From NCBI GenBank assembly GCA_040752415.1, contig JBFMGU010000144.1, positions 1-27,131 on the forward strand: 27,131 bases of DNA, read 5' to 3'. The notes under the pieces were generated by a model. The model saw only the letters and a program-made list of their open reading frames with translations, was not told where the DNA came from and searched no databases. This DNA is from Myxococcota bacterium. Its GTDB lineage: Bacteria; Myxococcota; JACRCW01. This document shows positions 2,088-21,220 of the stretch, in pieces; position 1 is the first letter of the stretch, and every line of letters starts with the position of its first letter. The position numbers and the translations under genes were made by a program.

Positions 2088-2912
2088 TCAGTTCTTGAGC
2101 ACGGTGCCCACGCTGCCCGGCTCCAGCACGGCGCGCTTGAGCTGTCCCACGGTGAGCCTGCCCAGGATGATCACCTGGCTCACGCCTTCATCCAACGCCT
2201 TGAAGCTCTCCTCCACCTTGGGAATCATCCCCGCACCAATGGTGCCGTCCTTGATGGCCGCGTTTCCGTCGGCGCGCGTGAGCACCGGGATGCGACTCCC
2301 CGGGTCCTTCACGTCCTTGAGCACGCCGGGCGTCCCGGTGATGAGCAGCAGCGCATCCGCCTTCAGCGCCACGGCAACCTGGTTGGCCACGGTGTCGGCG
2401 TTGATGTTGAACGTGTTGCCCTGCTCGTCGGCGCCCAGGCACGCCATCACCGGCACGTAGCCGTTCTTCCCCAGCAGCCCCAGCAGCTCGGTGTTGACGC
2501 TCTGCACGTCACCCACGAAGCCAAAGTCCACCGGGTCCGGTCCCCCGCCGCTGACGACGAGAGGCGGTCTCCGCTTGGCCCGCACCGCCAGGCTGCTGGC
2601 GCCGTGCAATCCCACCGGCCGCGCCCCCGCCGCGGTGAGCCGCGCGCACAGGTCCACGTTCACCGCGCCGGCCACCGCCATCTTCATCACCTCGAGCGTT
2701 CCCTCGTCGGTGATGCGCCGCCCGCCCACCATGCGCGGCTCCATGCCCAACCGCTTCTGCAGCGCCGTGGCCTGCGGTCCACCGCCGTGCACCACCACCA
2801 CGGTGTGACCCGCCTGCATCAGCGCGCCAATGTCGGCGGCAATGGCCTTCAGCTCCTCCTGGTGGGCGGCGTCCATCAGCTCACCGCCCAGCTTGATCAC
2901 CGTGGTGGTCAT
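2088..2912 (-). CDS. argB: Acetylglutamate kinase
   Basis: VIKLGG, VVVHGGGPQ, GRRITD, NINAD, GMIPKV motifs; ATGA overlap with argC. Confidence 0.95.
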   Translation of the reverse strand: MTTTVIKLGGELMDAAHQEELKAIAADIGALMQAGHTVVVVHGGGPQATALQKRLGMEPRMVGGRRITDEGTLEVMKMAVAGAVNVDLCARLTAAGARPVGLHGASSLAVRAKRRPPLVVSGGGPDPVDFGFVGDVQSVNTELLGLLGKNGYVPVMACLGADEQGNTFNINADTVANQVAVALKADALLLITGTPGVLKDVKDPGSRIPVLTRADGNAAIKDGTIGAGMIPKVEESFKALDEGVSQVIILGRLTVGQLKRAVLEPGSVGTVLKN

Positions 2913-3958
2913 GGCCAGCTACCCGGGTCCTCAAGGGTCAGCTTCTCGTCGAGACCGAGCATCAGGTTCATGTTCTGGATGCCCTGGCCCGCGCCGCCCT
3001 TGATGAGGTTGTCGGTGACGGAGAACGCGGTGATGAGGCGCCTGCCCTCCACCGGCTCACCAAAGGACACGCCCACCTCGGCGTAGTTGCTGCCCGCCAC
3101 CGCCACCACCTCGGGCAAGCGCTTCTGCGGGATGCGCACAAAGGGCTCGCCCGCGTAGCACTCCTGGTACAGCTTCTTCACCTGCTCCGTCGACACCGAG
3201 GCATCCACGTGCGCGAACGCGGTGACGAAGATGCCGCGGACCAACGGCGCGCTCACCGGCACGAAGCGCAGCGTCACGTTCTTGGCGCCCGCCGCCTGCC
3301 AGGTGTCCAGGACCTCCGGCACGTGCTGGTGCTCCAGCGGCTTGTAGGTGCGCAGGTTGCCCGCGCGCGTGGGGTGGTGCGTGGTGGCCGTGGGCGCAAT
3401 GCCGCTCCCCGACGAGCCGGTGATGCCCACCACCTCCACCTCGCCGCTCAGCAGTCCCGCCTTGGCCAGGGGCAGCAGGGCCAGCTCCATCGTCGTGGCG
3501 AAGCACCCGGGGCTGGCCACGTACTTCGCCTTCTTGATGCGCTCACGGTTGAGCTCGGGCAGCCCGTAGACGAACTCACCGAGCAGCTGCGGGGCCGGGT
3601 GGTCCGCGCCGTAGTGCTTCTTGTAGCTGGCCGCGTCCTTGAGACGGAAATCTCCGGAAAGATCGACGATGCGCGCCCCGGTCTTCATGATCTCCGGCAC
3701 GTACTTGGCGCTGATCTTGTGCGGCAGGCCCAGCAGGACCACGTCCATGCCCTCGGCGGCCTTGTCCGGCGGGATGTCCTGGAAGCGCAGGTCGGTCTGG
3801 CCTTCCAGGTTGTGGTGCACTTCCGAGATGAGCTCGCCCACGTGGTCCACGCTGGCCACCCGCACAAGCTCGACGTGAGGATGCAGGAGCAGACGACGGA
3901 TGAGCTCCACACCGCCGTAGCCGCTGCCACCGATGACGGCTGCTTTGAACTTTTTCAT
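2909..3958 (-). CDS. argC: N-acetyl-gamma-glutamyl-phosphate reductase
   Basis: GGSGYGGVEL Rossmann motif, DLSGDFRL, YGLPEL, catalytic SPGCF, DNLIKGGAGQGIQNMN; start placed at MKKFK (3958), not the longer ORF start. Confidence 0.95.
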   Translation of the reverse strand: MKKFKAAVIGGSGYGGVELIRRLLLHPHVELVRVASVDHVGELISEVHHNLEGQTDLRFQDIPPDKAAEGMDVVLLGLPHKISAKYVPEIMKTGARIVDLSGDFRLKDAASYKKHYGADHPAPQLLGEFVYGLPELNRERIKKAKYVASPGCFATTMELALLPLAKAGLLSGEVEVVGITGSSGSGIAPTATTHHPTRAGNLRTYKPLEHQHVPEVLDTWQAAGAKNVTLRFVPVSAPLVRGIFVTAFAHVDASVSTEQVKKLYQECYAGEPFVRIPQKRLPEVVAVAGSNYAEVGVSFGEPVEGRRLITAFSVTDNLIKGGAGQGIQNMNLMLGLDEKLTLEDPGSWP

Positions 3959-4034
3959 GGCGGCGCAACCTAGCGCGCCACCACGGGGCGGGCCACCGTT
4001 CCCCGGGCGTTGTCGCTGCGCCGCGCGGCTTGCT

Positions 4035-4185
4035 ACGGACGACGGTTCTTTCCGGCGGCGCCTCCGTGCCCACCGCCACGAGCTTGAGCCTTGGCACCAC
4101 GCCGCGTTGCTGGTGCACCGGGGCGCCGCGGAGCACGCCGCCCAACGTGGCACCGTGCTGGTCTTCCACGGCCTCACCGCGAGCA
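4035..4185 (+). pseudogene. Possible N-terminal remnant of an alpha/beta hydrolase
   Basis: Translates as 'ALLVHRGAAEHAAQRGTVLVFHGLTAS', resembling the beta-strand/HG oxyanion motif; no G-x-S-x-G follows and no clear start. Confidence 0.3.
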
Positions 4186-4353
4186 ACGGAACGACACCGC
4201 CACGTCGAGGACGCCGGGGCGGGAACACACCATGCCCGAGGCCGGCTGGGACGCGGTGTGGCGGAACAATCGTGGCGTGGTGTGAGCGAACCTTGACATC
4301 ACCGTCGCGTGCTGGACACGGTCGCGCCACCTGGATCACGGGAAGAGCCGAAC

Positions 4354-5295
4354 ATGGGAATCCTCCTCGTCACGTTGTTCGCGGTGTTGCCCATGAACAC
4401 ACCGCAGGAAGTTCCCGCGCCGGCACCCGCTCCCGCGCCTGCCGACGCCACCAACCCCAACCTGGCGGAAGAGGAGGAGGAAGAAGGGGAGCTCGAGGAG
4501 CCCGCACCCCGGCCGACGCCTCCCGCGCCCGCGACCGCCCCCAGGGAGAACAAGCCGCTGGCGGCGGTGGGTGGCTTCGTTGGCACGGTGGGCACGTTGT
4601 GCGCGGGGGCGTTCGTCGGCGGGGTGGTGTCCAACTTCTGCAGCCCGCTCGGCGTCATCATCGGCGTGGCCAGCGTGCTGGGGATGGGCGTGGGCGGTTA
4701 CGCGCTGGGCAGCCTGTTGGGCAAACGTCGCGTCCCGCTGCTGTGGACCATGCTCGGCGGAAACATCCCCACCATCGTCGCCATTGTGTTGAGCTTCCCG
4801 TTGCAGGTGGTGAGCTTTGTGGTGGCGTACGTCATTGCCTACGTGGGCCTGGTGCTCACCATCTACGGCGCCATGTTCTCGTTCCTCTGCTGCATGTTCT
4901 CGCTCGCCGACGCCAGCTACGCCTCCACGCTGGGGCTCACCCTCGCCATGACCGTGGCCGGCATCGCTCTCACCGGGCTGGGGGTGCTCATCGGCGCGGT
5001 GGGCGGGACGTTGTCGCTGATCATCGACGTCATTGGCGCGAGCGTCGGTGGTGGCATCGTGGCGGCGCTGATGGCGTTGACGGGCCGGCCGCTGGCCCAG
5101 GGCGAGGACCGCCTCAACTGGGACATGCTGAAGGTTCCCGACCCCATTCCGCCCGCCGTGAAGGTCCCCGCCCAGCCGGCGCCCGAGGTCGACGAGGAAG
5201 ATGTGGAGGACGCGCCGCCCGCGCCTTCGCCCGCGCCCACTCCCACTCCCGCACCTCCACCCCCGGTAACTCCCGCGCCCACGCCGGTGTACTGA
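4354..5295 (+). CDS. Hypothetical membrane protein with Pro/Glu-rich termini and Gly-rich transmembrane core
   Basis: Signal-like N-terminus MGILLVTLFAVLP; poly-Glu and PA repeats; long hydrophobic core; strong GC3 bias. Confidence 0.75.
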   Translation: MGILLVTLFAVLPMNTPQEVPAPAPAPAPADATNPNLAEEEEEEGELEEPAPRPTPPAPATAPRENKPLAAVGGFVGTVGTLCAGAFVGGVVSNFCSPLGVIIGVASVLGMGVGGYALGSLLGKRRVPLLWTMLGGNIPTIVAIVLSFPLQVVSFVVAYVIAYVGLVLTIYGAMFSFLCCMFSLADASYASTLGLTLAMTVAGIALTGLGVLIGAVGGTLSLIIDVIGASVGGGIVAALMALTGRPLAQGEDRLNWDMLKVPDPIPPAVKVPAQPAPEVDEEDVEDAPPAPSPAPTPTPAPPPPVTPAPTPVY

Positions 5296-11565: not shown

Positions 11566-12525
11566 TCAGTCCGCCTGGAACACCTCGTCCAGCGTGCGCG
11601 CGGTCAACGCGCGAGAGAGCCAGAGGTCAAGCAGGGCGGCGTCGCGGCAGGAGCGGACCCGGGCCTGGATATCTTCCGAGGGCGCCAGCCCGCGCGCCTC
11701 CAGGACCTTGAGGACGGCGCCCGCGAGCGCGTCGGCGCGCCCTTCCTCCCGCCCTTCCTCCCGCCCTTCCTCCCGCCCCTCCGCGCGTCCTGCTTCGCGC
11801 CCTCGCTCGAGCCCTCGCTCGAGCCCTCGCTGCTCGCCCTGGCGGAGCCACTTCAGCTCGAGGTCACTGAGCTCTCCAAGCTGTCCTTGCCGCATCAACT
11901 CCTCCAGCGCGGCCCGACACGCCGCATTGACGGACCTCAGGATGAGCCCATCATAGAAAAACCGACGCTGCTCTTCCAGACCCTTTGCCGCCACGAGGGC
12001 GGCCTTCGCCGCCGACAACACGTCTTCCTGGTCACCGTGCGCCATGACGCCCAGGACCGCCAGCTCCGGCAGCTCGCGCGCCTGCTGGACGTCGGTCAGC
12101 AGGGGCAACCCCAACGGCCCCAGGGCCAGCGGTGTGAGCGCCAACTCGCCGGGCGCGCCCCCGATCGCGCGTGAGGCCCATTTCTCGACGCGCTCTTCCG
12201 CGGTCACCACCAGCAGGCGGGCGGGACAGCGCAAGCGGGCGGAGACGGCGGCAAGGTAGAGCGGCCAGCTGAACCGCTTGTCCTCGTCCACCCCGAGCTG
12301 CGCCTCCACGACGATCGCCATCGTGGGCGAGCCTGCCCGCTCCAGCACCACCACCAGGTCCGCCTGGTAGGCGCGCGGCCAGAGGTCGGCCACGTCGCCG
12401 GACTGGACCCGCGGCTCTGCGTCCGCCGGCACCACCACGTGCAGCAGGCGCGACATCAGCTCCGCCGCCAGGCTGGGCCGGTTGCGGAACAGCGCCACAA
12501 TGGCGTCGTGCTCGGGCGAGGACAT
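11566..12525 (-). CDS. Rpn-like PD-(D/E)XK nuclease-family protein with (EGRE)n repeats and C-terminal helical domain
   Basis: 'HDAIVALF' N-terminus; ADL...VEAQ catalytic pattern; GREE repeats; 'LDLWLSRALTARTLDEVF' tail; GAGGG upstream of ATG 12525. Confidence 0.8.
   Translation of the reverse strand: MSSPEHDAIVALFRNRPSLAAELMSRLLHVVVPADAEPRVQSGDVADLWPRAYQADLVVVLERAGSPTMAIVVEAQLGVDEDKRFSWPLYLAAVSARLRCPARLLVVTAEERVEKWASRAIGGAPGELALTPLALGPLGLPLLTDVQQARELPELAVLGVMAHGDQEDVLSAAKAALVAAKGLEEQRRFFYDGLILRSVNAACRAALEELMRQGQLGELSDLELKWLRQGEQRGLERGLERGREAGRAEGREEGREEGREEGRADALAGAVLKVLEARGLAPSEDIQARVRSCRDAALLDLWLSRALTARTLDEVFQAD
11739..11838. repeat. 12-bp coding tandem repeats (GREE x3, GLER x2)
   Basis: gcccttcctccc x3 at 11739-11774; gccctcgctcga x2 plus a partial copy from 11799. 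Confidence 0.9.
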
Positions 12526-12600
12526 GCGCGTGCCCTCGCACGGCACCGCGCCGTCGGCAACGCGGACCACGTCAACTTACGGGGTGGTGCCTGAGAAGGC

Positions 12601-13167
12601 TCAACAACCGGTGCGGATGGGGCGGGAGGGCGTCGTCGTGGAGGACGAGCCGCAACCGGTGCTCACCGGGCGGGACGGCGCGGGCGTCGGGGTCCAGCTC
12701 GTGGGGCGGGACGGGGTGTTCGTCGAGGAGCCGCAGCCGGTGCTCACCGGACGGGAGGGCGTGGAAACCGACGAGCCACAGCCGGTGCTCACCGGGCGCG
12801 ACGGCGTGGAGGGAGTGGAGGAGCCGCAGCCGGTGGACACGTTGCCCCCACCGCGCTCGACAGTGACACCGGTGGCCAGCTCCAGCAGCCGCGCCGCCAG
12901 CGACGAGAGCGCCCGCTGCTCCCGCGCATCCAGCTGTCCGTCCTGGTTGCGGTCCGCGCCGCGGATCTCCGCGCCCACCGTCTTGAGCGCCTCCTTCATG
13001 CGCGGGATGGACACCGTGGAGCTGCACGAGGTCTGCACCGTGCGCGCCAGCTCCCGCAGCGCCTTGTTGGAGATGTTGCCCACGTCGACACTGCTGCCCT
13101 GGTTCTTCTCCAGGCGCCGCAGCGCGTCCTGCATGGACCGCAGTCCCTTCTGGGAATCCACCTTCAT
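12601..13167 (-). CDS. 188-aa EF-hand plus TGC-repeat protein; putative substrate/precursor of the adjacent radical SAM enzyme
   Basis: GGAGGAG Shine-Dalgarno before ATG 13167; 14 nt after the rSAM stop; DRNQDGQLDARE; five [VI]-x-T-G-C units, the last at the C-terminus. Confidence 0.85.
   Translation of the reverse strand: MKVDSQKGLRSMQDALRRLEKNQGSSVDVGNISNKALRELARTVQTSCSSTVSIPRMKEALKTVGAEIRGADRNQDGQLDAREQRALSSLAARLLELATGVTVERGGGNVSTGCGSSTPSTPSRPVSTGCGSSVSTPSRPVSTGCGSSTNTPSRPTSWTPTPAPSRPVSTGCGSSSTTTPSRPIRTGC
12604..12843 (-). repeat. Five imperfect coding repeats, consensus P-S-R-P-V-S-T-G-C-G-S-S
   Basis: Cys-to-Cys spacing 16, 15, 27, 16 aa; synonymous variation between copies (ACC GGC TGC / ACC GGC TGT / ACC GGT TGC / ACC GGT TGT). 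Confidence 0.92.
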
Positions 13168-13181
13168 CTTCGGCTCCTCCC

Positions 13182-14522
13182 TCAACCAACAACGCGCAGC
13201 AGACTGGCACCGCGGCGTGGGAATGTCACGGGCGCCATCCCCTCGCGCGGCTCGTAGTGGCACCAGGAGTCCGGCCCCTCCAGCCCGTTGCCCGCGTACA
13301 GCGCCCGCACCCGGCACCCTCCCCGACACGTGTCGTGATGCCGGCAGCTCATGCACTGCGCGTTGGCGTCGATGGCGCGAAGTTGCGTGAATGCCGCGCC
13401 GCCCGCCCACAGGTCCCACAAGAGCGTCTCGCGCACGTTCCCCGACTCATACGCGCCGGGCAGGTTGAGACACGGCGTCACGTTTCCCGTCGGGGAGATG
13501 CCCATCACCACCTTGCCGGCCACGCACCCGAATCCCGGGAAGTCCGGCTCTCCCGCCTCCTCGGGGTGCGGCGCATCCAAGGTCACGCCCAGCTCCGCGG
13601 CCCGCACCCGCGCGCGGTCAATGGCGCGGCTGAAGGTGTCGCGGTCGCAGACCAGCCCGGGATTCGCCTGCGCCTCGCCGGCGGGATAGGCGGGACGCAA
13701 CAGCAGCACCCGCGCGCCCTCCTGGTGGGCCAGCTCCACCATGCGCGCAGCGTCGGGGGCGTTGCGCGGCGTGATGGTGACGGAGATGTTGAACCCCGGC
13801 GCGTAGTGCTCGCGCAGCTGCAGCATGCCGCGCAGCGCCTTCTGGAACGTGCCCGGGCCGCGGATGGCGTCGTTGGTGTCCTCGTCGGGGCCATCCAGGC
13901 TGACGCTCAGTCCCGCGGGGGGACACTCGGAGAGCGCCTGCAGCACGGCGGGCTTGAGCAGGGACGCGTTGGTGTGCACGAAGGTGTCCACGCCGACCTC
14001 GTCGGCCTTGCGTACCACGCGCGGGAGATCCTTGCGCAGGAACGGCTCCCCGCCGCCCAGCACCAGCTTCACGCAGCCCATCTCCGCCAATTGCTCGACG
14101 AGACCGGCAATCTCCTTGAAGGTCAGCTCCCCCGGCGCACGTTTTCCCGACGAGGAATAGCAATGCGCGCAGGAGAAGTTGCACGCCAGCGTCACGCCCA
14201 GGTGCGCCACCAGCGGAGCGCCGTAGCCCTGGTGCACCCGCGGCAGCTCGACGATGCGCCCCGCGAACACCCCGTCCAGTCCGAACACCCCCAGCGCCTC
14301 CAGGTCCGCGCGCGCCTGCTGCGCCTCCAGCGTCCCCACGCTGCGGGCCAGGGTGTCCACCGCGTCGTCGAGCGGCAGCTCGCGGGAGGCCACCATGAGG
14401 AAGCTCTCGGCGGCGGTGCGACGCGTGTACGCGTGGTCCGCGCGACGGTAGAGCAAGGCCCCCTCCGCCTCGACGCGCAGCGTGAACGGCACCGGCCGCG
14501 CCCTGGTCTCCGCTCTCTCCAC
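13182..14522 (-). CDS. Radical SAM/SPASM peptide maturase with putative N-terminal RRE (PqqD/MftB-like)
   Basis: CNFSCAHC; GGGEPF; SLDG; SPASM C-x17-C...C-x2-C-x5-C-x3-C-x17-C; about 90-aa N-terminal extension; GGGAGG before GTG 14522. Confidence 0.93.
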   Translation of the reverse strand: MERAETRARPVPFTLRVEAEGALLYRRADHAYTRRTAAESFLMVASRELPLDDAVDTLARSVGTLEAQQARADLEALGVFGLDGVFAGRIVELPRVHQGYGAPLVAHLGVTLACNFSCAHCYSSSGKRAPGELTFKEIAGLVEQLAEMGCVKLVLGGGEPFLRKDLPRVVRKADEVGVDTFVHTNASLLKPAVLQALSECPPAGLSVSLDGPDEDTNDAIRGPGTFQKALRGMLQLREHYAPGFNISVTITPRNAPDAARMVELAHQEGARVLLLRPAYPAGEAQANPGLVCDRDTFSRAIDRARVRAAELGVTLDAPHPEEAGEPDFPGFGCVAGKVVMGISPTGNVTPCLNLPGAYESGNVRETLLWDLWAGGAAFTQLRAIDANAQCMSCRHHDTCRGGCRVRALYAGNGLEGPDSWCHYEPREGMAPVTFPRRGASLLRVVG

Positions 14523-14610
14523 CGGACCTCCCGCGCGCCAAGCCTAGACCAACGGTGGGAACAACGGGGAGCACGGCGGAGGTGGCGCTTTGCTGCTAGA
14601 ACCGCGCCCC

Positions 14611-15771
14611 ATGACGACCACCACGGATGCCACCCTGGACCAGGCGCTCCAGCTGGTCTCCCGCCAGCAGGCGGAGATGGAGCGCACGCTCAAGCTGCTG
14701 GTCGACGAGAACTCGCACACCGCGGAGCGCGACCGCGTCAACAAGGTGGGCGCCATGCTCGCCGAGCTCTTCACCATGCCGGGGCTGACCCCGGAGTGGC
14801 GCAAGAGCGAACGCTTTGGCAACCACCTCATCCTCACCACGCCGGCCAGCGGACCGCGCACGTTGCTGATTGGTCACCATGACACGGTGTTCCCGCCCGG
14901 CACCTTCGAGGGCATGCGCGAGGATGGGGAGCTGTTGCGCGGGCCCGGCGTGCTGGACATGAAGGGCGGGCTCCTGGTGGTGCGCTTCGCGCTCAAGGCC
15001 CTCAGCGAGGTGGGCGCACTGGAGCGCATCCCGCTCGCCGTCATCAGCGTGGCAGACGAGGAAGTGGGCAGCGAGGACAGCGGGCCCCACCTGCGCGAGC
15101 TGTGCGGCAACGCCAAGGCGGCGCTGGTCTTCGAGGCGGGTCGCCTGGGCGACGCGATCATCACGCGCCGCAAGGGCACCGGTGGGATCACCGCGCGGGC
15201 GCACGGCCGGGCGGCACACGCGGGCAACGCGCACCGCGAGGGCGTGAATGCCATCTGGGCGCTGGCGCGCTTCATCGACGCGGCGCAGCGCATCACCGAC
15301 TACGACCGCGGCATCACCGTGAACGTGGGCAAGGTGAGCGGCGGCACCTCCAAGAACACCGTGCCCGACGCCGCGGAGGCGGTGATCGACTTCCGCTTCG
15401 TCCGCACCGACGACGGTCGCGACGTGGAGGCGGCCATGGCGGCGGCAGCGGACCGCGTGGCGGGCGAGGTGCCAGGCGCCCGGGTGGAGATCAGCGGCGG
15501 GGTGCGTCGGTTGCCGCTGGAGCAGACGGCGGCCTCGCGCGCGCTGATGGAACGCTACGCCGCGGCGGCGCGGGCCACGGGCCTGGGCGCGGGTGAGGCT
15601 CCGCTGCTGGGTGGTGGCAGCGACGCCAACACGGTGAGCGCCGTGGGCGTGCCGGCCATCGACGGGCTGGGGCCGCGCGGCAAGGGTTTCCACACCAATG
15701 ACGAGCAGATCGAGCGCGCCACGCTGGTTCCCAAGGCGCAGGCGCTGATCCGCTACCTGCTCACCGCATGA
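14611..15771 (+). CDS. M20 family metallopeptidase (carboxypeptidase G2/ArgE-like)
   Basis: GHHDTVF, GPGVLDMKGG, DEEVGS, VFE, AAHAG, GGSDAN, GFHT metal-ligand motifs. Confidence 0.92.
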   Translation: MTTTTDATLDQALQLVSRQQAEMERTLKLLVDENSHTAERDRVNKVGAMLAELFTMPGLTPEWRKSERFGNHLILTTPASGPRTLLIGHHDTVFPPGTFEGMREDGELLRGPGVLDMKGGLLVVRFALKALSEVGALERIPLAVISVADEEVGSEDSGPHLRELCGNAKAALVFEAGRLGDAIITRRKGTGGITARAHGRAAHAGNAHREGVNAIWALARFIDAAQRITDYDRGITVNVGKVSGGTSKNTVPDAAEAVIDFRFVRTDDGRDVEAAMAAAADRVAGEVPGARVEISGGVRRLPLEQTAASRALMERYAAAARATGLGAGEAPLLGGGSDANTVSAVGVPAIDGLGPRGKGFHTNDEQIERATLVPKAQALIRYLLTA

Positions 15772-16385: not shown

Positions 16386-16415
16386 GGGCTTCGCGAAACG
16401 AGGCGCGAAGCCCTC
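16384..16415. terminator. Perfect 12-bp hairpin between convergent genes
   Basis: gagggcttcgcg (16384-16395), 8-nt loop, cgcgaagccctc (16404-16415); no U-tract. Confidence 0.55.
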
Positions 16416-16428
16416 TACCTATGTGGGC

Positions 16429-17202
16429 TCAGGGTGACCAGCCGCAGATGTTCCGTGCGCGGTCTAGGGTACGGGTATTGGAATTGTCGGTCCCATGGTC
16501 GTGGCTCATGGCCAGGTCCTCGTGAGGACGACTCGGTTGCCGCGCCTTTGACTCCTGTAGGAACTGCTGGAACGCAGCGTGCTGCAGTCGGCAGTAAGGT
16601 GCCTGCACCGCATTCTGCTGCAAAGTCCGACCACGACTATCAAGCCCATTCTCGTCGTAGATCTGAGCCCCAGTGCAATACAGGGGAACAACGAATTGGC
16701 CGTCGTCCGTAAGAAGGGCAACTTCCGCGTCTGGTGACCAAGGGATCACCTCCGTCGCCGCATAGCCGCAAACCACGGCCTGCGCGCTGCTCACGGCCTC
16801 TCGTTTTATGCATGCATACCCATACACAGGAGAGCCGTGTGCCCAGTTCCGAAATGAAATCGGAACCTCATAGTTGATGAGGAAGTCGGTCTCGCCCATT
16901 GATTCCCCGATGATGTACTCCTCAGGCGTGAACTGGACGCGGTAGCCATTATTTGGGCAACGGCACTGGTCCACGCTCATTCCTGATTCGCAGGGATTTG
17001 TGCCGGGGCACGCCTCAAACGCGTTCATTCTGACCTTGATCACAGCGTGGCACGAGTCCCATTGCTCCTGGCTCGGGGTCCATTCGCCATCATTGACGAC
17101 GTTTTGCCCGGATCCCGATGGCTCGATGGGTCCGCTCGTTGAACACGCGGCGCACGCGGCGAGAAATGCCGCCACGCAACCAAGTCTGAGGATTCTCACC
17201 AT
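16429..17202 (-). CDS. Hypothetical Cys-rich lipoprotein
   Basis: MVRILRLGCVAAFLAACAAC lipobox-like signal; multiple Cys in the mature part; open 257-codon frame in lower-GC DNA. Confidence 0.7.
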   Translation of the reverse strand: MVRILRLGCVAAFLAACAACSTSGPIEPSGSGQNVVNDGEWTPSQEQWDSCHAVIKVRMNAFEACPGTNPCESGMSVDQCRCPNNGYRVQFTPEEYIIGESMGETDFLINYEVPISFRNWAHGSPVYGYACIKREAVSSAQAVVCGYAATEVIPWSPDAEVALLTDDGQFVVPLYCTGAQIYDENGLDSRGRTLQQNAVQAPYCRLQHAAFQQFLQESKARQPSRPHEDLAMSHDHGTDNSNTRTLDRARNICGWSP

Positions 17203-17331
17203 GCGGCACCCGTTCCAGCGAGCCCCGGACAAAGTAGCGTTCCATCTGCCTATGTTCTCATTGATGACCTGCAGCCTCCGGGACATCCTCATCCCCCATC
17301 CCCCACCATCGCCCACGCCAAGAAGGCCCCG

Positions 17332-17661
17332 TTAGAACGTTGGTCGGTCTCTGGTGTTGCAGGTGCCATTGTCACAAAAGGCCTCTACTGGCTCCGCGGC
17401 GCAATCACAGGTGGTTGGCGTTGGTGGAAACGGGCACGCCATCGCCTTCTCATCGCTGGCGAATCGGGCAGCATCCTTGCGGTTCACAGAGCCTGCCACG
17501 GCGCCGCAATGGCAGAACGGGTTTTCGCATGCCTCATAAACCACAATGACGCAATCGTCGTCAACCGTGCAGCTCCGATCATAGTCTTGGACGTTAGCGT
17601 GACAGGCGCTAAGGAAAGACAACAACAGAGCAGCGGACAACCCCATGATTTGTCGGCCCAT
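17332..17661 (-). CDS. Small Cys-rich lipoprotein
   Basis: GAGGA Shine-Dalgarno before ATG 17661; LSAC lipobox; 'SCTVDDDCV...C...CHC...CP...CDC...AFCDNGTC' disulfide-rich pattern. Confidence 0.75.
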   Translation of the reverse strand: MGRQIMGLSAALLLSFLSACHANVQDYDRSCTVDDDCVIVVYEACENPFCHCGAVAGSVNRKDAARFASDEKAMACPFPPTPTTCDCAAEPVEAFCDNGTCNTRDRPTF

Positions 17662-17729
17662 CACCGCGTTCCTCACGGAGCCAAGCCGCACACAGTCTCG
17701 CGGCGATCCGAAGGTCGTGTTTCCGCGCC

Positions 17730-19793
17730 TCATAGACACTCCCCGGAGAACGAAGGGTCACAGACCAGTGTTGGAAAGATGAATTCATTGCAGTGTTCCC
17801 ACTCGCAGTAGTCGCCGGCGACTCCGCCCCAGCGGAACTTCGAGGCGCTCGACGGAATATCGAAGAGGCGAACTCCGAGATCAAAGGGGTTGAAGTCTCC
17901 GTTGCCATCAAGGAGAACCGCCGTATTGAAGTTGGCGCCCGGGAAGCGCCTGCTCACAGACAATGACCATGCAGGCCCGGGATGGGTTCCAGCAACAACA
18001 CTGGCGTAGTCCGTGACGCCGATAACCATGGCGTCTTGGAGGGAGTTGGTTCGGTTGCAAGCACCCGGAGTAATGGTCTGTGCTGCGGCATTCACGGTAA
18101 ATGGGCAAACAACCATCTTCAGATCCTTGTCCTCCACAGCGTTCTGGAACTCGTGGAAGATTAGGCGACAATCATTGCCGGACTTGATGTGATTGTGACA
18201 TGCAATATCGAATGGGCCTATCGGAGCAACATCAAGGATGTTGGTAAAAGTGAAATTCGTTCCGACTCCGGTGTCACTATTCAGGTATGGACCAGCACGA
18301 CGCGGGGGACCGAATGCAAACCCTGCCGCTGCGGGGTCATTTCCATTGGAAACCAGGAACTGGATTTGATGACGGGCGTCCGCAAACGCGATCACGTACC
18401 GATGTGAGGCATTATCAAATGCAACTCGCGGCTCCGACTTGGAGAGGGTGCCACCGGCAGGCGTGATCGTGTTGACCCCTACCCATTGCATCGTGTCCAT
18501 GTTCAATCGTGCGAATTGCGGGAACATCCCTGGATTGCTCCACACCACGACCGCTGAGCCATAGGTTGTCGCTCCTTCCCGCGAGAACGCGATGTCGGGG
18601 TTGGTAAGGGCAGTGCCATTGCCCGACGGCAACAGCGCTGTCGTTGTCAGGTGGAGCTGAGGGCCTTGCGAGGAGCTATTGTCGTCCATGGTCCATACCC
18701 TGATGGTTCCATCAGTTGATCCAGTCCTCTCGGTTGTGACCATGACACAGTCAGGAATGTCTTGGTCGCCTGCGCAGGCTAGTCGCGGAGGCGTCAAAGA
18801 CCTCGGCGCCGGAAGGCCGAGTTCCCGGGTGAAAGCGACAGTGCTGCCCGTTGTGATGTTCCCGCTGCCATCAATCACACCGGGAATGTACTTCACATCG
18901 ACGAGGTTGCCGCCACCGAACGCAGCGCTTCCGCTTCGCATGGATACGATATCCTCACGCGTCAGCTCCAGCGACGCTGCGCCTGCGGTCTGACAGACTA
19001 TCGGCCCTTCCTGCCCCGTGCTCGGCGACGCGACACATGGCGGTGTGGTGGAGCTTGGATCATTGGATCCAAAGCAGTGGACGAATTCATGCATCGCTGT
19101 TCGGTGAAACAGGGAGCCCATCGGAGGGGGACCCCCGATTTCCTCCCAATCGAGACCTGTCGGAGGTGGACCGGGCTGGTTGCCTCTTCCCGAGAACGAC
19201 CGCGGGATGGGGCGGCCGGCACACATGTCACCGCAGCCCGGGGGACATGGTGGAAAAGGAAATGCCCCACATCCGGGAGGACATAGTGGATTATTGTTCA
19301 CGCACAGGTTGCCCTGAAACGAGATGTCGCATTCGCTTCCACTAAACGCAGCCGCATGTGCATTGATGCAATTGGTTGCGCATCCTGGCGGGCACTGTGG
19401 AAAGCCGCTTGGCAGGCACCCAGGTGGGCATCCGTTCCAATTGCAGCACGTCGGTCCCGGACAGACCATGTCATGATACGTGAGGACACTATTGCCGTCG
19501 GGAACCAGGTCTTTCGGAACCCAAGAGTCCGGCGTCGAGTCCACTTCCACGGCGATGTCTGTTCTCGCGGAGCGATTCCAGAATTGCGTCACACGATCAA
19601 GGAAGCTCGCGGCTTGCGCCGTCGTTAGCTCTTCGCCGGGAAACCAGGATACCCCTGCACCGAATGTGTCCTTTACGTGGTATGTCTCGCGTCCTGCAGC
19701 CAACGTCGTCACGCCGAAGGGATAAAGTGCGGCTGCGGTTGAAGCTGCAAGAACCACCGAGCCCGCGATGACCCCGATTAATAGCCGCTTCAC
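17730..19793 (-). CDS. Secreted metzincin-like zinc metalloprotease with CPPGC repeats and probable beta-rich C-terminal domain
   Basis: Signal peptide MKRLLIGVIAGSVVLAASTAAA; HEFVHCFGSND at 19059-19091; matrixin-like 'LTREDIVSMR'; GGAGG before the GTG start. Confidence 0.75.
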   Translation of the reverse strand: MKRLLIGVIAGSVVLAASTAAALYPFGVTTLAAGRETYHVKDTFGAGVSWFPGEELTTAQAASFLDRVTQFWNRSARTDIAVEVDSTPDSWVPKDLVPDGNSVLTYHDMVCPGPTCCNWNGCPPGCLPSGFPQCPPGCATNCINAHAAAFSGSECDISFQGNLCVNNNPLCPPGCGAFPFPPCPPGCGDMCAGRPIPRSFSGRGNQPGPPPTGLDWEEIGGPPPMGSLFHRTAMHEFVHCFGSNDPSSTTPPCVASPSTGQEGPIVCQTAGAASLELTREDIVSMRSGSAAFGGGNLVDVKYIPGVIDGSGNITTGSTVAFTRELGLPAPRSLTPPRLACAGDQDIPDCVMVTTERTGSTDGTIRVWTMDDNSSSQGPQLHLTTTALLPSGNGTALTNPDIAFSREGATTYGSAVVVWSNPGMFPQFARLNMDTMQWVGVNTITPAGGTLSKSEPRVAFDNASHRYVIAFADARHQIQFLVSNGNDPAAAGFAFGPPRRAGPYLNSDTGVGTNFTFTNILDVAPIGPFDIACHNHIKSGNDCRLIFHEFQNAVEDKDLKMVVCPFTVNAAAQTITPGACNRTNSLQDAMVIGVTDYASVVAGTHPGPAWSLSVSRRFPGANFNTAVLLDGNGDFNPFDLGVRLFDIPSSASKFRWGGVAGDYCEWEHCNEFIFPTLVCDPSFSGECL

Positions 19794-20536
19794 AGGTCAC
19801 CTCCCTCGGCCAAGAACCGAACGAACTGTTCAAACGCAACGCCACGCTCAACGGGGCCATTCTGATCCCGAAGATTCACAAGAGCGTGGTCTTGGGCTGC
19901 GAGGTACACTTCGTCGTCGATTCGAGTCAGCATCAGGAGCACTTCGCTACCGACGTCACACGTCGGCTGGTGCGACACGAATTCCCACTCCGTCTCTGAC
20001 AATCGCCCTCCGGCCAAGCGAAATGACGCTGGAGGGTTGTTCTCCAGACGCTTGTACTCTGTCAAGACGGAGAAGTGGCAATCTGTAACGATGTGGCCTT
20101 CCGTGCCCAGCCAAGCGCCCCTGACTGGAACGGCACGTTCAAGACGTGCGGCAGCAACGAGAATGACGCCGGAGGCGTCAAACATGTTGGCGACAAAGTC
20201 TCCGCGGCCGGAGATCTCAGAGAGATTGGTTCCCCTCGGTTGATGCAGAGCCCAGGCCTCAACGCCCGCCGCTGCTCGATCGGGTGATTCAGGCTGGGCG
20301 CGCAATTCGGGCCAGTCGCACACACCGTCTGCCTCAATCCAGCACTTGTCGTCTATGCAGCACTCAATGCTCGACGGCTGCGTTTCGGGAACTGCGCTTC
20401 TCGGAGTGCGGTTTGCGCTCTTACCCGGTCTGGAACTGTCCTGCTGCGCCAATGCCGCGCTTCCGACAACCGCCACGAACATCGGTGCCGCCAACACCAA
20501 CGCCTTCGAACGGCTCCGCCCAAGCATCTGCCACAT
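19790..20536 (-). CDS. Secreted hypothetical protein coupled to the metalloprotease (possible prodomain or inhibitor-like beta-barrel)
   Basis: AAGGAG Shine-Dalgarno; signal peptide ending ALA; 'IVTDCHFSV...YK...LAGG...P...VGSEVLLML' pattern; GTGA overlap with the protease. Confidence 0.7.
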   Translation of the reverse strand: MWQMLGRSRSKALVLAAPMFVAVVGSAALAQQDSSRPGKSANRTPRSAVPETQPSSIECCIDDKCWIEADGVCDWPELRAQPESPDRAAAGVEAWALHQPRGTNLSEISGRGDFVANMFDASGVILVAAARLERAVPVRGAWLGTEGHIVTDCHFSVLTEYKRLENNPPASFRLAGGRLSETEWEFVSHQPTCDVGSEVLLMLTRIDDEVYLAAQDHALVNLRDQNGPVERGVAFEQFVRFLAEGGDL

Positions 20537-21220
20537 CCTCGGCTCCTTGGTTCCTAGAATTCGCGTGAAACTGAGAGATACTTCGAAATCTGCTTAATCT
20601 CTAGCCTAGGCGGAGGCGATATGCAAGCACGCCTACCGCAAGCACGGTTCCGCAGGTGGGGCTCGGCAGGCCAAGTCGCGCCAGTTTCTCGCTGCGAAGC
20701 GCTTCAGAGTCACTTCAGGAATCCGTTCCGATAGGCCTGCATCGCAATCCGCGTGCCCACATGCCTTGGGTGGACTCAACGCAACTAAACTACAGTTGCA
20801 GGTCCACGCATTCAGTGGGGAAGACTCAGAGACGATGCCAGCGGCCGTGATGCTTCGCGCCCTGAACTCGTGCCAGCCCCCCCTCCTTCATCGGATGGTT
20901 CTCGCGGTCGGTATGGACTCGACGCAGTGGTTGCTGATGCTTGGTCGCATCACCTGGGTGAAACGCGCATCAGATGGTCCGGGCTCCACTCACGAGCGGG
21001 ATGCACCGAGCCCAGGGTGTTCAGCTTGGTCCTTTGTGGGCAGGAACCCTGCCGGCGCGGTGCGCAGCCGCATGGTCTCCGGCCCACCCGGAGATCCTTT
21101 CCGGGCCGCGGTGGTCGGATGTCCGGGATGCGGTAAACGCGCTCCGGGGCGCGGTCCCCACTTTTCAGGGGTACGGTCCGGAGCATTCCGGGGTTGGAGT
21201 CAGGTGTTCGGCGACCTCGT

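Follow-up and report, generated by a model that had tools for sequence, protein, structure and literature searches.

Radical S-adenosylmethionine (rSAM) maturases with a SPASM domain are a main source of new peptide chemistry. SkfB, SuiB and CteB act on short leader-core peptides with one or a few crosslinks, and in the PapB/freyrasin system and other ranthipeptides (NCBIfam NF047865) several Cys motifs lie in one substrate, each forming its own small thioether ring; the PapB/freyrasin motif is C-x3-D, with the acceptor downstream. The target of MftC is the C-terminal end of a small peptide encoded with it; the last residues of MftA are Val-Tyr, and in the mycofactocin system the recognition element (RRE) for RiPPs (peptides made on the ribosome and modified after translation) is a separate protein, MftB. 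To our knowledge, enzymatic crosslinks on whole proteins are limited to a handful of examples, QhpC and, from 2026, CrpA. Here, a pair of adjacent genes is described from a 27,131-nt contig of a Myxococcota bacterium (NCBI GenBank assembly GCA_040752415.1, contig JBFMGU010000144.1, positions 1 to 27,131), hereafter called the window. The first encodes an rSAM/SPASM enzyme with an N-terminal RRE-like domain, the second a partner protein whose every Cys lies in one conserved motif of the type [VI]-x-[TS]-G-C. An enzyme of this architecture beside such a protein is best interpreted as a maturase next to its substrate, in which the Cys units would be the modification sites, and the pair probably represents an unstudied protein-modification system.

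Its kind is already known, namely a radical SAM/SPASM maturase with an adjacent repeated-Cys substrate. CrpC of Methanococcus voltae, an RRE-rSAM-SPASM protein, installs ranthionine crosslinks in the adjacently encoded Cys-repeat protein CrpA (PMC13692751, in the portion of the paper available). The two systems have in common the three-part enzyme with a seven-Cys SPASM domain and an adjacent, protein-sized substrate with a recognition region at its N-terminus and repeated Cys motifs arrayed at its C-terminus, and the same portion of the source establishes no dedicated protease or exporter (PMC13692751). CrpA differs, as described there, in its archaeal origin and in its ten 17-residue repeats with the motif C-X-X-Q/D and the acceptor downstream of the Cys, whereas the unit here is V-x-T-G-C, nothing is needed after the Cys, and one class of partners (type A, below) includes an EF-hand-like domain. 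A second point of comparison is SbtM, an rSAM enzyme with a likely SPASM domain that converts a conserved -Gly-Cys(Sec)- motif into a thiooxazole; the product is 4 Da lighter, shows a band at 304 nm and still reacts with iodoacetamide (PMC9204691, from the sections available). Repeated short Cys motifs in a small-residue context, some fused to EF-hands and modified by an adjacent enzyme, also occur in the systems of MNIOs (oxidative enzymes that depend on multinuclear non-heme iron): available parts of one report describe substrates that have repeated EGKCG motifs, and chimaeras in which such a region is joined to two EF-hand domains (PMC12452194). There, however, the enzyme is an MNIO (DUF692) and not a radical SAM protein, the motif is EGKCG, and bufferin-type precursors carry a signal peptide or transmembrane helix (PMC12452194, same parts). 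Searches of open-access papers and bioRxiv turned up no description of a VSTGC-type motif or of an rSAM/EF-hand precursor pair, the strings PVSTGC and VSTGCG being absent from the top-ranked papers, and the pair falls outside every curated family tested.

Both genes lie on the reverse strand:

13182..14522, reverse strand: rSAM/SPASM maturase gene, 446 amino acids (P0002), GTG start, stop codon TGA at 13182-13184, from the open reading frame (ORF) and its translation
13168..13181, reverse strand: intergenic spacer of 14 nt, GGGAGGAGCCGAAG, with the Shine-Dalgarno sequence GGGAGGAG at 13174-13181
12601..13167, reverse strand: partner (candidate substrate) gene, 188 amino acids (P0001), ATG at 13167, stop codon at 12601-12603, from the translation, the N-terminus aligning with homologues

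The sequence bears out the 14-nt gap reported in an initial annotation of this DNA, and with it the strong Shine-Dalgarno site that serves the partner gene immediately after the rSAM stop codon. No terminator-like site was reported between the two genes, both reported sites lying inside the rSAM ORF, and a sigma-70 promoter scan of the locus returned 0 sites. The source genome amounts to 11.0 Mb in 520 contigs at ~70% GC, the window being its contig C51.

The partner contains six Cys units, five of them in its C-terminal tail:

12604..12855, reverse strand: disordered Ser/Thr/Pro tail with five units, residues 105-188; in the AlphaFold2 (AF2) model the predicted local distance difference test score (pLDDT) is below 50 over most of it, with 10-residue block means of 42-51
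12826-12840, reverse strand: VSTGC of tail unit NVSTGC, residues 109-114
12778-12792, reverse strand: VSTGC of tail unit PVSTGC, residues 125-130
12733-12747, reverse strand: VSTGC of tail unit PVSTGC, residues 140-145
12652-12666, reverse strand: VSTGC of tail unit PVSTGC, residues 167-172
12604-12618, reverse strand: IRTGC of the terminal unit PIRTGC, residues 183-188, followed by the stop codon
13024..13038, reverse strand: sixth, internal unit VQTSC, residues 44-48, in a loop between helix 35-44 and strand 51-53

The tail units had been recognized in the initial annotation as five [VI]-x-T-G-C repeats and are confirmed at residues 110-188; the sixth unit (44-48) had been missed. In the family alignments C48 of this internal unit is invariant and T46 invariant or nearly so. 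The earlier statement that the repeats differ at synonymous sites also stands: three script-matched copies of RPVSTGCGSS (a copy at residues 154-163 was left out) encode the same ten residues with five differing codons (CGC/CGT, GGC/GGT, TGT/TGC, TCG/TCC and TCG/TCC). Furthermore, Tandem Repeats Finder detects a DNA-level repeat only at 12724-12810 (45-nt period, 1.9 copies, 88% matches). Only two units thus still form a repeat at the DNA level, and the rest have diverged in linker length and sequence.

A census of 28 partners, comprising 20 database proteins and eight read from loci, extends this pattern across the family. It left out the truncated partner of G400, the partner of G407 and 11 of 19 more distant profile matches, of which eight entered; one of the eleven, P0216, was a row dropped before the census. 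Every Cys of these partners (103/103) lies within a unit, and the recurrence of the motif is more than chance. Of the 103 units, 81 have V and 9 have I at position -4; 56 have S, 17 R and 13 A at -3; 79 have T and 19 S at -2; and 92 have G, 8 S, 2 A and 1 H at -1. Among the 75 internal units, the residue after the Cys (+1) is most often G (44), followed by S (15) and A (12). The C-terminal residue is Cys in all 28 partners, the terminal units having Arg at -3 in 17/28, so that nothing downstream of the Cys is needed there. Between two and six Cys occur per partner, in odd and even counts alike, which argues that each unit is self-contained and led to the rejection of disulfides or other Cys-Cys pairing. 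The G407 partner, outside the census, fits the motif as well.

The pair is conserved as a unit. With a threshold of E<=1e-80, an enzyme orthologue was found in 14 of 401 Myxococcota genomes, in 9/208 genomes of one family, one of them new and bringing the total to 15 genomes, and in 5/23 genomes of one genus. When the flanks were read, the partner directly adjoined the enzyme gene in 13 of the 15: it lies immediately downstream in 12 genomes (one cut by a contig end), and in G361 immediately upstream, overlapping the rSAM start. The other two, G039 and G072, have no TGC partner, a convergent gene of unknown family standing there instead. In a maximum-likelihood tree of the 15 enzymes, from which a script filter had removed two paralogue rows, the 13 partner-bearing enzymes form one clade (100/100) and those of G039 and G072 the other (100/100). 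Close rSAM homologues thus have a TGC-repeat partner, in favour of the initial annotation, in 13/15 genomes and in 13/13 within the enzyme's own clade. The two genes constitute a cassette that is sporadically distributed in Myxococcota and conserved in related soil bacteria.

Searches that started from the partner gave the same picture. Partner profiles run over the 401 genomes yielded 12 partner matches, 11 with E<=3e-25 and that of G378 with 4.2e-8, all beside an rSAM gene. Five strong matches (E<=2.9e-34), all adjoining the enzyme, came from the type-A profile, whose stricter first look may have missed weak ones; the type-B profile matched seven genomes, all enzyme-bearing with the partner adjacent (six at E<=3e-25 and G378), as well as a 35-residue fragment at a contig end. 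Weak type-A matches in G017, G343 and G260 (1.4e-7 to 4.5e-5) revealed no Cys-unit protein on inspection, the one in G343 being an EF-hand-like protein without Cys units and with no rSAM nearby. A further weak match, in G002 (contig C138, locus L061), belongs to a paralogous pair: a 316-residue EF-hand protein that contains an ASGCSG unit and ends in Cys, its gene overlapping the start of a 30%-identical rSAM gene. No convincing partner-like gene away from the enzyme was found in the 401 genomes, in line with the proposed tie between the repeat gene and an rSAM.

The enzyme family comprises ~65 clusters at >=47% identity, followed by a gap down to 38% identity, and its members bear only generic database names such as "radical SAM protein". 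A search of genome contigs with the single enzyme found one close relative among 15 loci, 59% identical and located in a metagenome-assembled genome labelled Archangiaceae. A search of metagenome contigs with the enzyme alignment, its patterns being generic rSAM motifs, kept 80 loci at <=44% identity (full-length <=37%), none of which was used.

The enzyme itself is a complete rSAM/SPASM protein, as first described, with three recognizable elements:

14160..14183, reverse strand: CxxxCxxC cluster motif (C114, C118 and C121), read in the sequence and invariant in 25/25 aligned members
13260..13526, reverse strand: SPASM domain with seven invariant Cys (C333, C351, C390, C393, C399, C403 and C421), the C-terminal motif of this subfamily for two auxiliary 4Fe-4S clusters, all seven present in 25/25 members
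14292..14486, reverse strand: N-terminal RRE-like domain, residues 13-77, from the topology of the AF2 model and profile matches

Both Pfam models exceed their cut-offs, PF04055 (Radical_SAM) with 87.9 bits against 29.5 and PF13186 (SPASM) with 33.5 bits against 21.5 at residues 333-393. The AF2 model (mean pLDDT 86) places strands at 13-17, 22-26 and 31-35 and helices at 37-45, 51-62 and 64-77, with pLDDT block means of 91-98; three strands followed by three helices are the RRE topology, and as modelled the N-domain is PqqD-like. Pfam PqqD itself gave no match to the enzyme at E<=0.1. Searched against the Protein Data Bank (PDB) with hmmsearch, the family profile matches SkfB (3e-34, profile positions 9-347), SuiB (positions 5-218), PqqE, CteB and anSME, and the top solved folds in Foldseek are SkfB (6e-19, TM 0.66/0.76), SuiB (TM 0.70) and CteB. 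The profile and structure alignments to SkfB and SuiB span their N-domains and, together with the fold model, uphold the earlier RRE call. SkfB, SuiB and CteB thus share fold and domain order with the enzyme, at a sequence identity of only 16-23%.

Beyond the generic Radical_SAM and SPASM models, the enzyme reaches no Pfam or NCBIfam family. The best NCBIfam match is MftC (TIGR03962; 184 bits against a cut-off of 265, E 4e-54, residues 96-424), and among the best 25 of 73 matches every one lies below its cut-off, those other than MftC by a wide margin. The partner matches no such family either, and the match to a characterized family that, in the initial annotation, would have removed the novelty was not found in Pfam or NCBIfam. 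A candidate eighth cluster ligand, C292, is present in only 20/25 aligned members; the lack of a conserved eighth Cys is consistent with an auxiliary cluster that keeps one iron site open to a substrate thiolate. CteB has such a site for its substrate thiolate. The same model is described for CrpC as well (PMC13692751, section 14, in the text available). A predicted complex of enzyme and partner scored 0.12 against a mark of 0.32, which is evidence neither way.

Two architectures of the partner can be distinguished. Type A, an EF-hand domain followed by the tail, is found in G000, G001, G002, G003, G361 and metagenomic proteins (alignment A3). Type-B partners are basic peptides, ~75-118 residues long (seven sequences, alignment A2), with the layout MTVGKAG..PVATGCG..PVSTGCG..GGWK..LSxRSxxxLEKA..VSTGCG..RTGC-stop. 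Aligned with hhalign, the two types match through the units only (probability 97.5%), and MAFFT sets the LSxRS..L segment of type B on the type-A helix LSPLAARLL. The enzymes that serve type B are 59-65% identical to that of the window. Similar enzymes with partners that share only the units and one short helix suggest that the units, and perhaps the helix, are what the enzyme requires. At closer range, the enzymes of G227 and G407 are 93% identical; their partners, aligned with 13% gaps, share 68% identity and retain the units.

The partner of the window, of type A, combines its tail with a folded N-terminal domain:

12868..13167, reverse strand: folded N-domain, residues 1-100, with AF2 block pLDDT of 87-95
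12919..12954, reverse strand: canonical EF-hand loop, residues 72-83 (DRNQDGQLDARE), of the form D72-x-N-x-D76-G77-x-L-x-x-x-E83

Helices are modelled at 5-23, 35-44, 54-71, 81-85 and 89-99, those at 54-71 and 81-85 flanking the loop, which has the form expected of an EF-hand. In 15 type-A partners D72, D76 and E83 are invariant and G77 nearly so, and a search with the family profile brings up many multi-EF-hand proteins, matched at profile positions ~55-100. P0001 has no Pfam match at E<=0.1, its relatives giving only sub-threshold EF-hand matches, and no family in NCBIfam. The best Foldseek match to the N-domain is lanmodulin (E 4e-3), with calmodulin also weak and no match in the PDB at E<=0.001. 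A wide VIA search reached a best Z of 5.0, with lanmodulin at Z 4.7 (root-mean-square deviation 5.6 over 91 residues), within noise, and the ESM Atlas returned leads below 0.9 only, all EF-hand-like. No signal peptide was noted in the partner by inspection alone. The idea that the Cys units form a lipobox or sorting signal was rejected, since no signal peptide was noted (again by inspection) and the units are internal or terminal repeats.

Taken as a whole, these observations are best explained, with somewhat better than even confidence, by an RRE-rSAM-SPASM maturase that modifies the Cys of each partner unit by forming a thioether within the unit. Its component claims differ in strength: that the partner is the substrate is likely, that the Cys is the modified residue in each unit is reasonably probable, and that the product is a thioether rather than the outcome of other chemistry is tentative, a choice we would make at somewhat less than an even chance. 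The enzyme would dock on the partner via its N-terminal RRE, and each [VI]-x-[TS]-G-C unit would be threaded into the active site as an extended strand with the side chains at -4, -2 and 0 on one face, a mode of binding suggested by the alternating conservation at these positions. Cleavage of SAM would generate the 5'-deoxyadenosyl radical, and the Cys of every unit (six sites in the partner of the window) would be oxidatively modified. The Cys sulfur, possibly held by auxiliary cluster I, would join a carbon of an upstream residue, most likely the Thr/Ser at -2, at a cost of 2 Da and the free thiol per unit. The protein ends with its last unit, which leaves only positions upstream of the Cys for the acceptor. 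The thioether is favoured on account of thioether-forming precedents among RRE-rSAM-SPASM enzymes, including the protein-modifying CrpC (PMC13692751, as far as the available text goes), and of the conserved positions -2 and -4.

The product would be a calcium-binding domain carrying a string of small rings. It probably remains a protein, as suggested by the lack of a noted signal peptide and of a conserved protease or exporter beside the pair. Of the label originally given, a RiPP or protein-modification system, the second half is therefore the more apt: "modified protein" describes the system better than "RiPP natural product", which fits less well because no protease or exporter is conserved. 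As a whole the original interpretation is partly supported; it missed the EF-hand-like folded domain, the short type-B architecture and the alternative chemistry of the SbtM kind.

Several observations weigh against the thioether or against the partner as a conventional precursor. The candidate acceptors are not invariant, position -2 being P, G, A or D in 5/103 units and position -4 other than V/I in 13/103, and with Ser at -2 the product would be a beta-thioether, which is chemically awkward. Among the neighbours of the Cys, the Gly at -1 is best conserved, and it matches the site requirement described for the SbtM thiooxazole. On the enzyme side, the PapB, SCIFF, QhpD and CrpC-type (TIGR04463) models are absent among the best 25 of 73 NCBIfam matches, a difference from the ranthipeptide and CrpC systems despite the likeness of repeated Cys motifs in one substrate, and MftC, the nearest curated family, makes a C-C bond after decarboxylation, not a thioether. 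Unlike a classical leader peptide, the presumed substrate includes a domain whose fold is predicted with confidence. Finally, the distant matches omitted from the census are less uniform than its members: one or two residues follow the last Cys in P0094, P0095 and P0097, P0093 has Cys units and a C-terminus other than Cys, P0086 ends without Cys (it may be cut), P0088, P0101, P0141 and P0160 are without unit cysteines, and P0102 ends in Cys within ITSC.

The strongest competitor keeps the same pair and changes the chemistry. As in SbtM, each Gly-Cys would be oxidized by four electrons to a 5-thiooxazole, through two hydrogen abstractions from the Cys C-beta, after which the ring closes on the carbonyl of the Gly before it; this would yield a protein or peptide of the cytoplasm that has 2-6 thiooxazole metal-binding sites, a radical-SAM counterpart of the MNIO-made bufferins and oxazolins. 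The conservation of Gly at -1 (92/103) speaks for this route, as does the likeness to SbtM and its substrate SbtA in an rSAM enzyme with three Fe-S clusters, a conserved Gly-Cys dipeptide and no need for an acceptor residue (PMC9204691, PMC12538549, from the parts available). A reaction that needs neither an acceptor nor anything downstream fits the terminal unit in 28/28 partners and the non-invariant -2 and -4, and the layout of EF-hand plus STGCG has a parallel in the EGKCG and EF-hand substrates of MNIOs (PMC12452194, in the sections available). However, the enzyme scores only 54.9 bits on the SbtM model (TIGR04082) against a cut-off of 350, in a match that begins at about position 204 of 516, and a search of the genome for an SbtA-type precursor (TIGR04081) gave no match at E<=1. 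Nor would a thiooxazole require the conservation of V/I at -4 and T/S at -2, though recognition could depend on them; among the scanned neighbours of the pair no conserved gene is related to metals, and the signal peptide or transmembrane helix of bufferin-type precursors (PMC12452194, same sections) was not noted in the partners on inspection alone. We regard the thiooxazole as a serious but less probable alternative, and the thioether is slightly favoured over it.

A cofactor logic like that of MftC or PqqE is improbable. Here the C-terminal Cys would be acted on, for example by oxidative decarboxylation and crosslinking, and the internal units would be extra cores freed by an unlinked protease, making the partner a multi-core precursor of a small thiol-derived molecule. 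No curated family scores higher than MftC (184 bits), each of the 28 close partners has a unit Cys as its last residue, with the terminal signature of Arg at -3 in 17/28, and an M20 peptidase gene lies divergently adjacent to the enzyme gene (14590-15771, forward strand). Yet the score stays under the MftC cut-off of 265, the internal units share the motif and cannot be decarboxylated, distant members have one or two residues after the last Cys, and no M20 or other gene is conserved among 62/92 neighbour proteins at 13 other loci. The systems also differ in that the RRE is fused to the enzyme here, the substrate has several Cys units, and no MftB-, MftD-, MftE- or MftF-like neighbours or other mft-like genes were seen adjacent to the pair.

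That the partner is not a substrate, and is instead a calcium- or metal-binding accessory or regulator of an enzyme whose true substrate lies elsewhere or is not a peptide, would accord with its stably folded N-domain and canonical calcium-binding loop and with the sister enzyme clade (G039 and G072) that has no TGC partner, but is the least probable reading given the RRE of the enzyme, a type-B partner that lacks the folded domain and keeps the units, the confinement of every Cys to one motif, and adjacency in either gene order.

A broader formulation, possible if rather unlikely in all its parts, is that a Myxococcota-specific rSAM lineage places an undescribed modification on [TS]-G-C, up to six times per protein and including the C-terminus, on a folded calcium-binding protein that undergoes neither cleavage nor export. 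The modification itself would be an 11-membered Thr-to-Cys thioether or a thiooxazole, and the product might be, for example, a calcium-responsive metal buffer. If this were true, it would be a new kind of intracellular modified protein. A thioether between positions i and i-2 would represent a new type of ring, its acceptor lying upstream of the Cys, and a thiooxazole would mean that radical SAM and MNIO enzymes have converged on the same kind of metal-binding, EF-hand-fused precursor. The system makes a clean experimental target, being a two-gene cassette with a sharply defined five-residue site, no extra tailoring genes around it, and natural "minimal" (type B) as well as "domain-fused" (type A) substrates.

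The genome of the window holds a second, paralogous pair on contig C3 (genome G000, locus L175). A 181-residue protein (4069-4614 of the locus, reverse strand) has an internal WVSSGCSG unit, an EF-hand-like segment DGTKGKDGVISEKEE and the C-terminus SSGGCG followed by the stop codon, and its gene overlaps the start of an rSAM/SPASM gene (2705-4078, reverse strand) whose product is 33% identical to the enzyme of the window. Similar pairs occur in G002 (the L061 pair described above), G034 (L014) and G037 (L015). Judged from their sequences, these paralogous pairs point to a wider Myxococcota superfamily of EF-hand/Cys-unit proteins with rSAM enzymes of their own.

The partner-less orthologues of G072 and G039, 47-48% identical to the enzyme, are each followed by a convergent gene (L047:9868-10782 and L049:9800-11047, both on the reverse strand). 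The G072 protein ends in ..VNTGYG..INTGYG..VRDGYGS and the stop codon, and the G039 protein contains VSNSYG. Such [VI]-x-x-[GS]-Y-G units mirror [VI]-x-T-G-C-G, with Tyr replacing Cys, and the sister clade may catalyse the corresponding reaction on units of the type [VI]-x-x-G-Y-G. The N-terminal part of the G072 protein was rejected as a relative of the partner, with an hhalign probability of 2% against the partner profile.

Around the pair, the window encodes an SNF2 helicase, a 334-residue protein without a family, the divergent M20 peptidase and a HAD hydrolase. No recurrent family, protease, transporter or further tailoring enzyme was found among 62/92 called neighbour proteins at the 13 other loci. 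The M20-family gene is separated from the rSAM gene by a 67-nt spacer and is probably unrelated to the cassette, as it does not recur at those loci. The 334-residue ORF (11566-12570, reverse strand), ~30 nt downstream of the partner gene, has C-terminal ERGLERG/EGREEGR repeats and no Pfam match at E<=1e-3, and is not conserved beside the cassette in other genomes. Farther away, positions 16400-21200 of the window have a lower GC content (57-64%, against ~70% elsewhere) and contain Cys-rich ORFs without a Pfam match (16429-17316, 17332-17739 and 17730-19793, all on the reverse strand); this stretch may be a horizontally acquired island.

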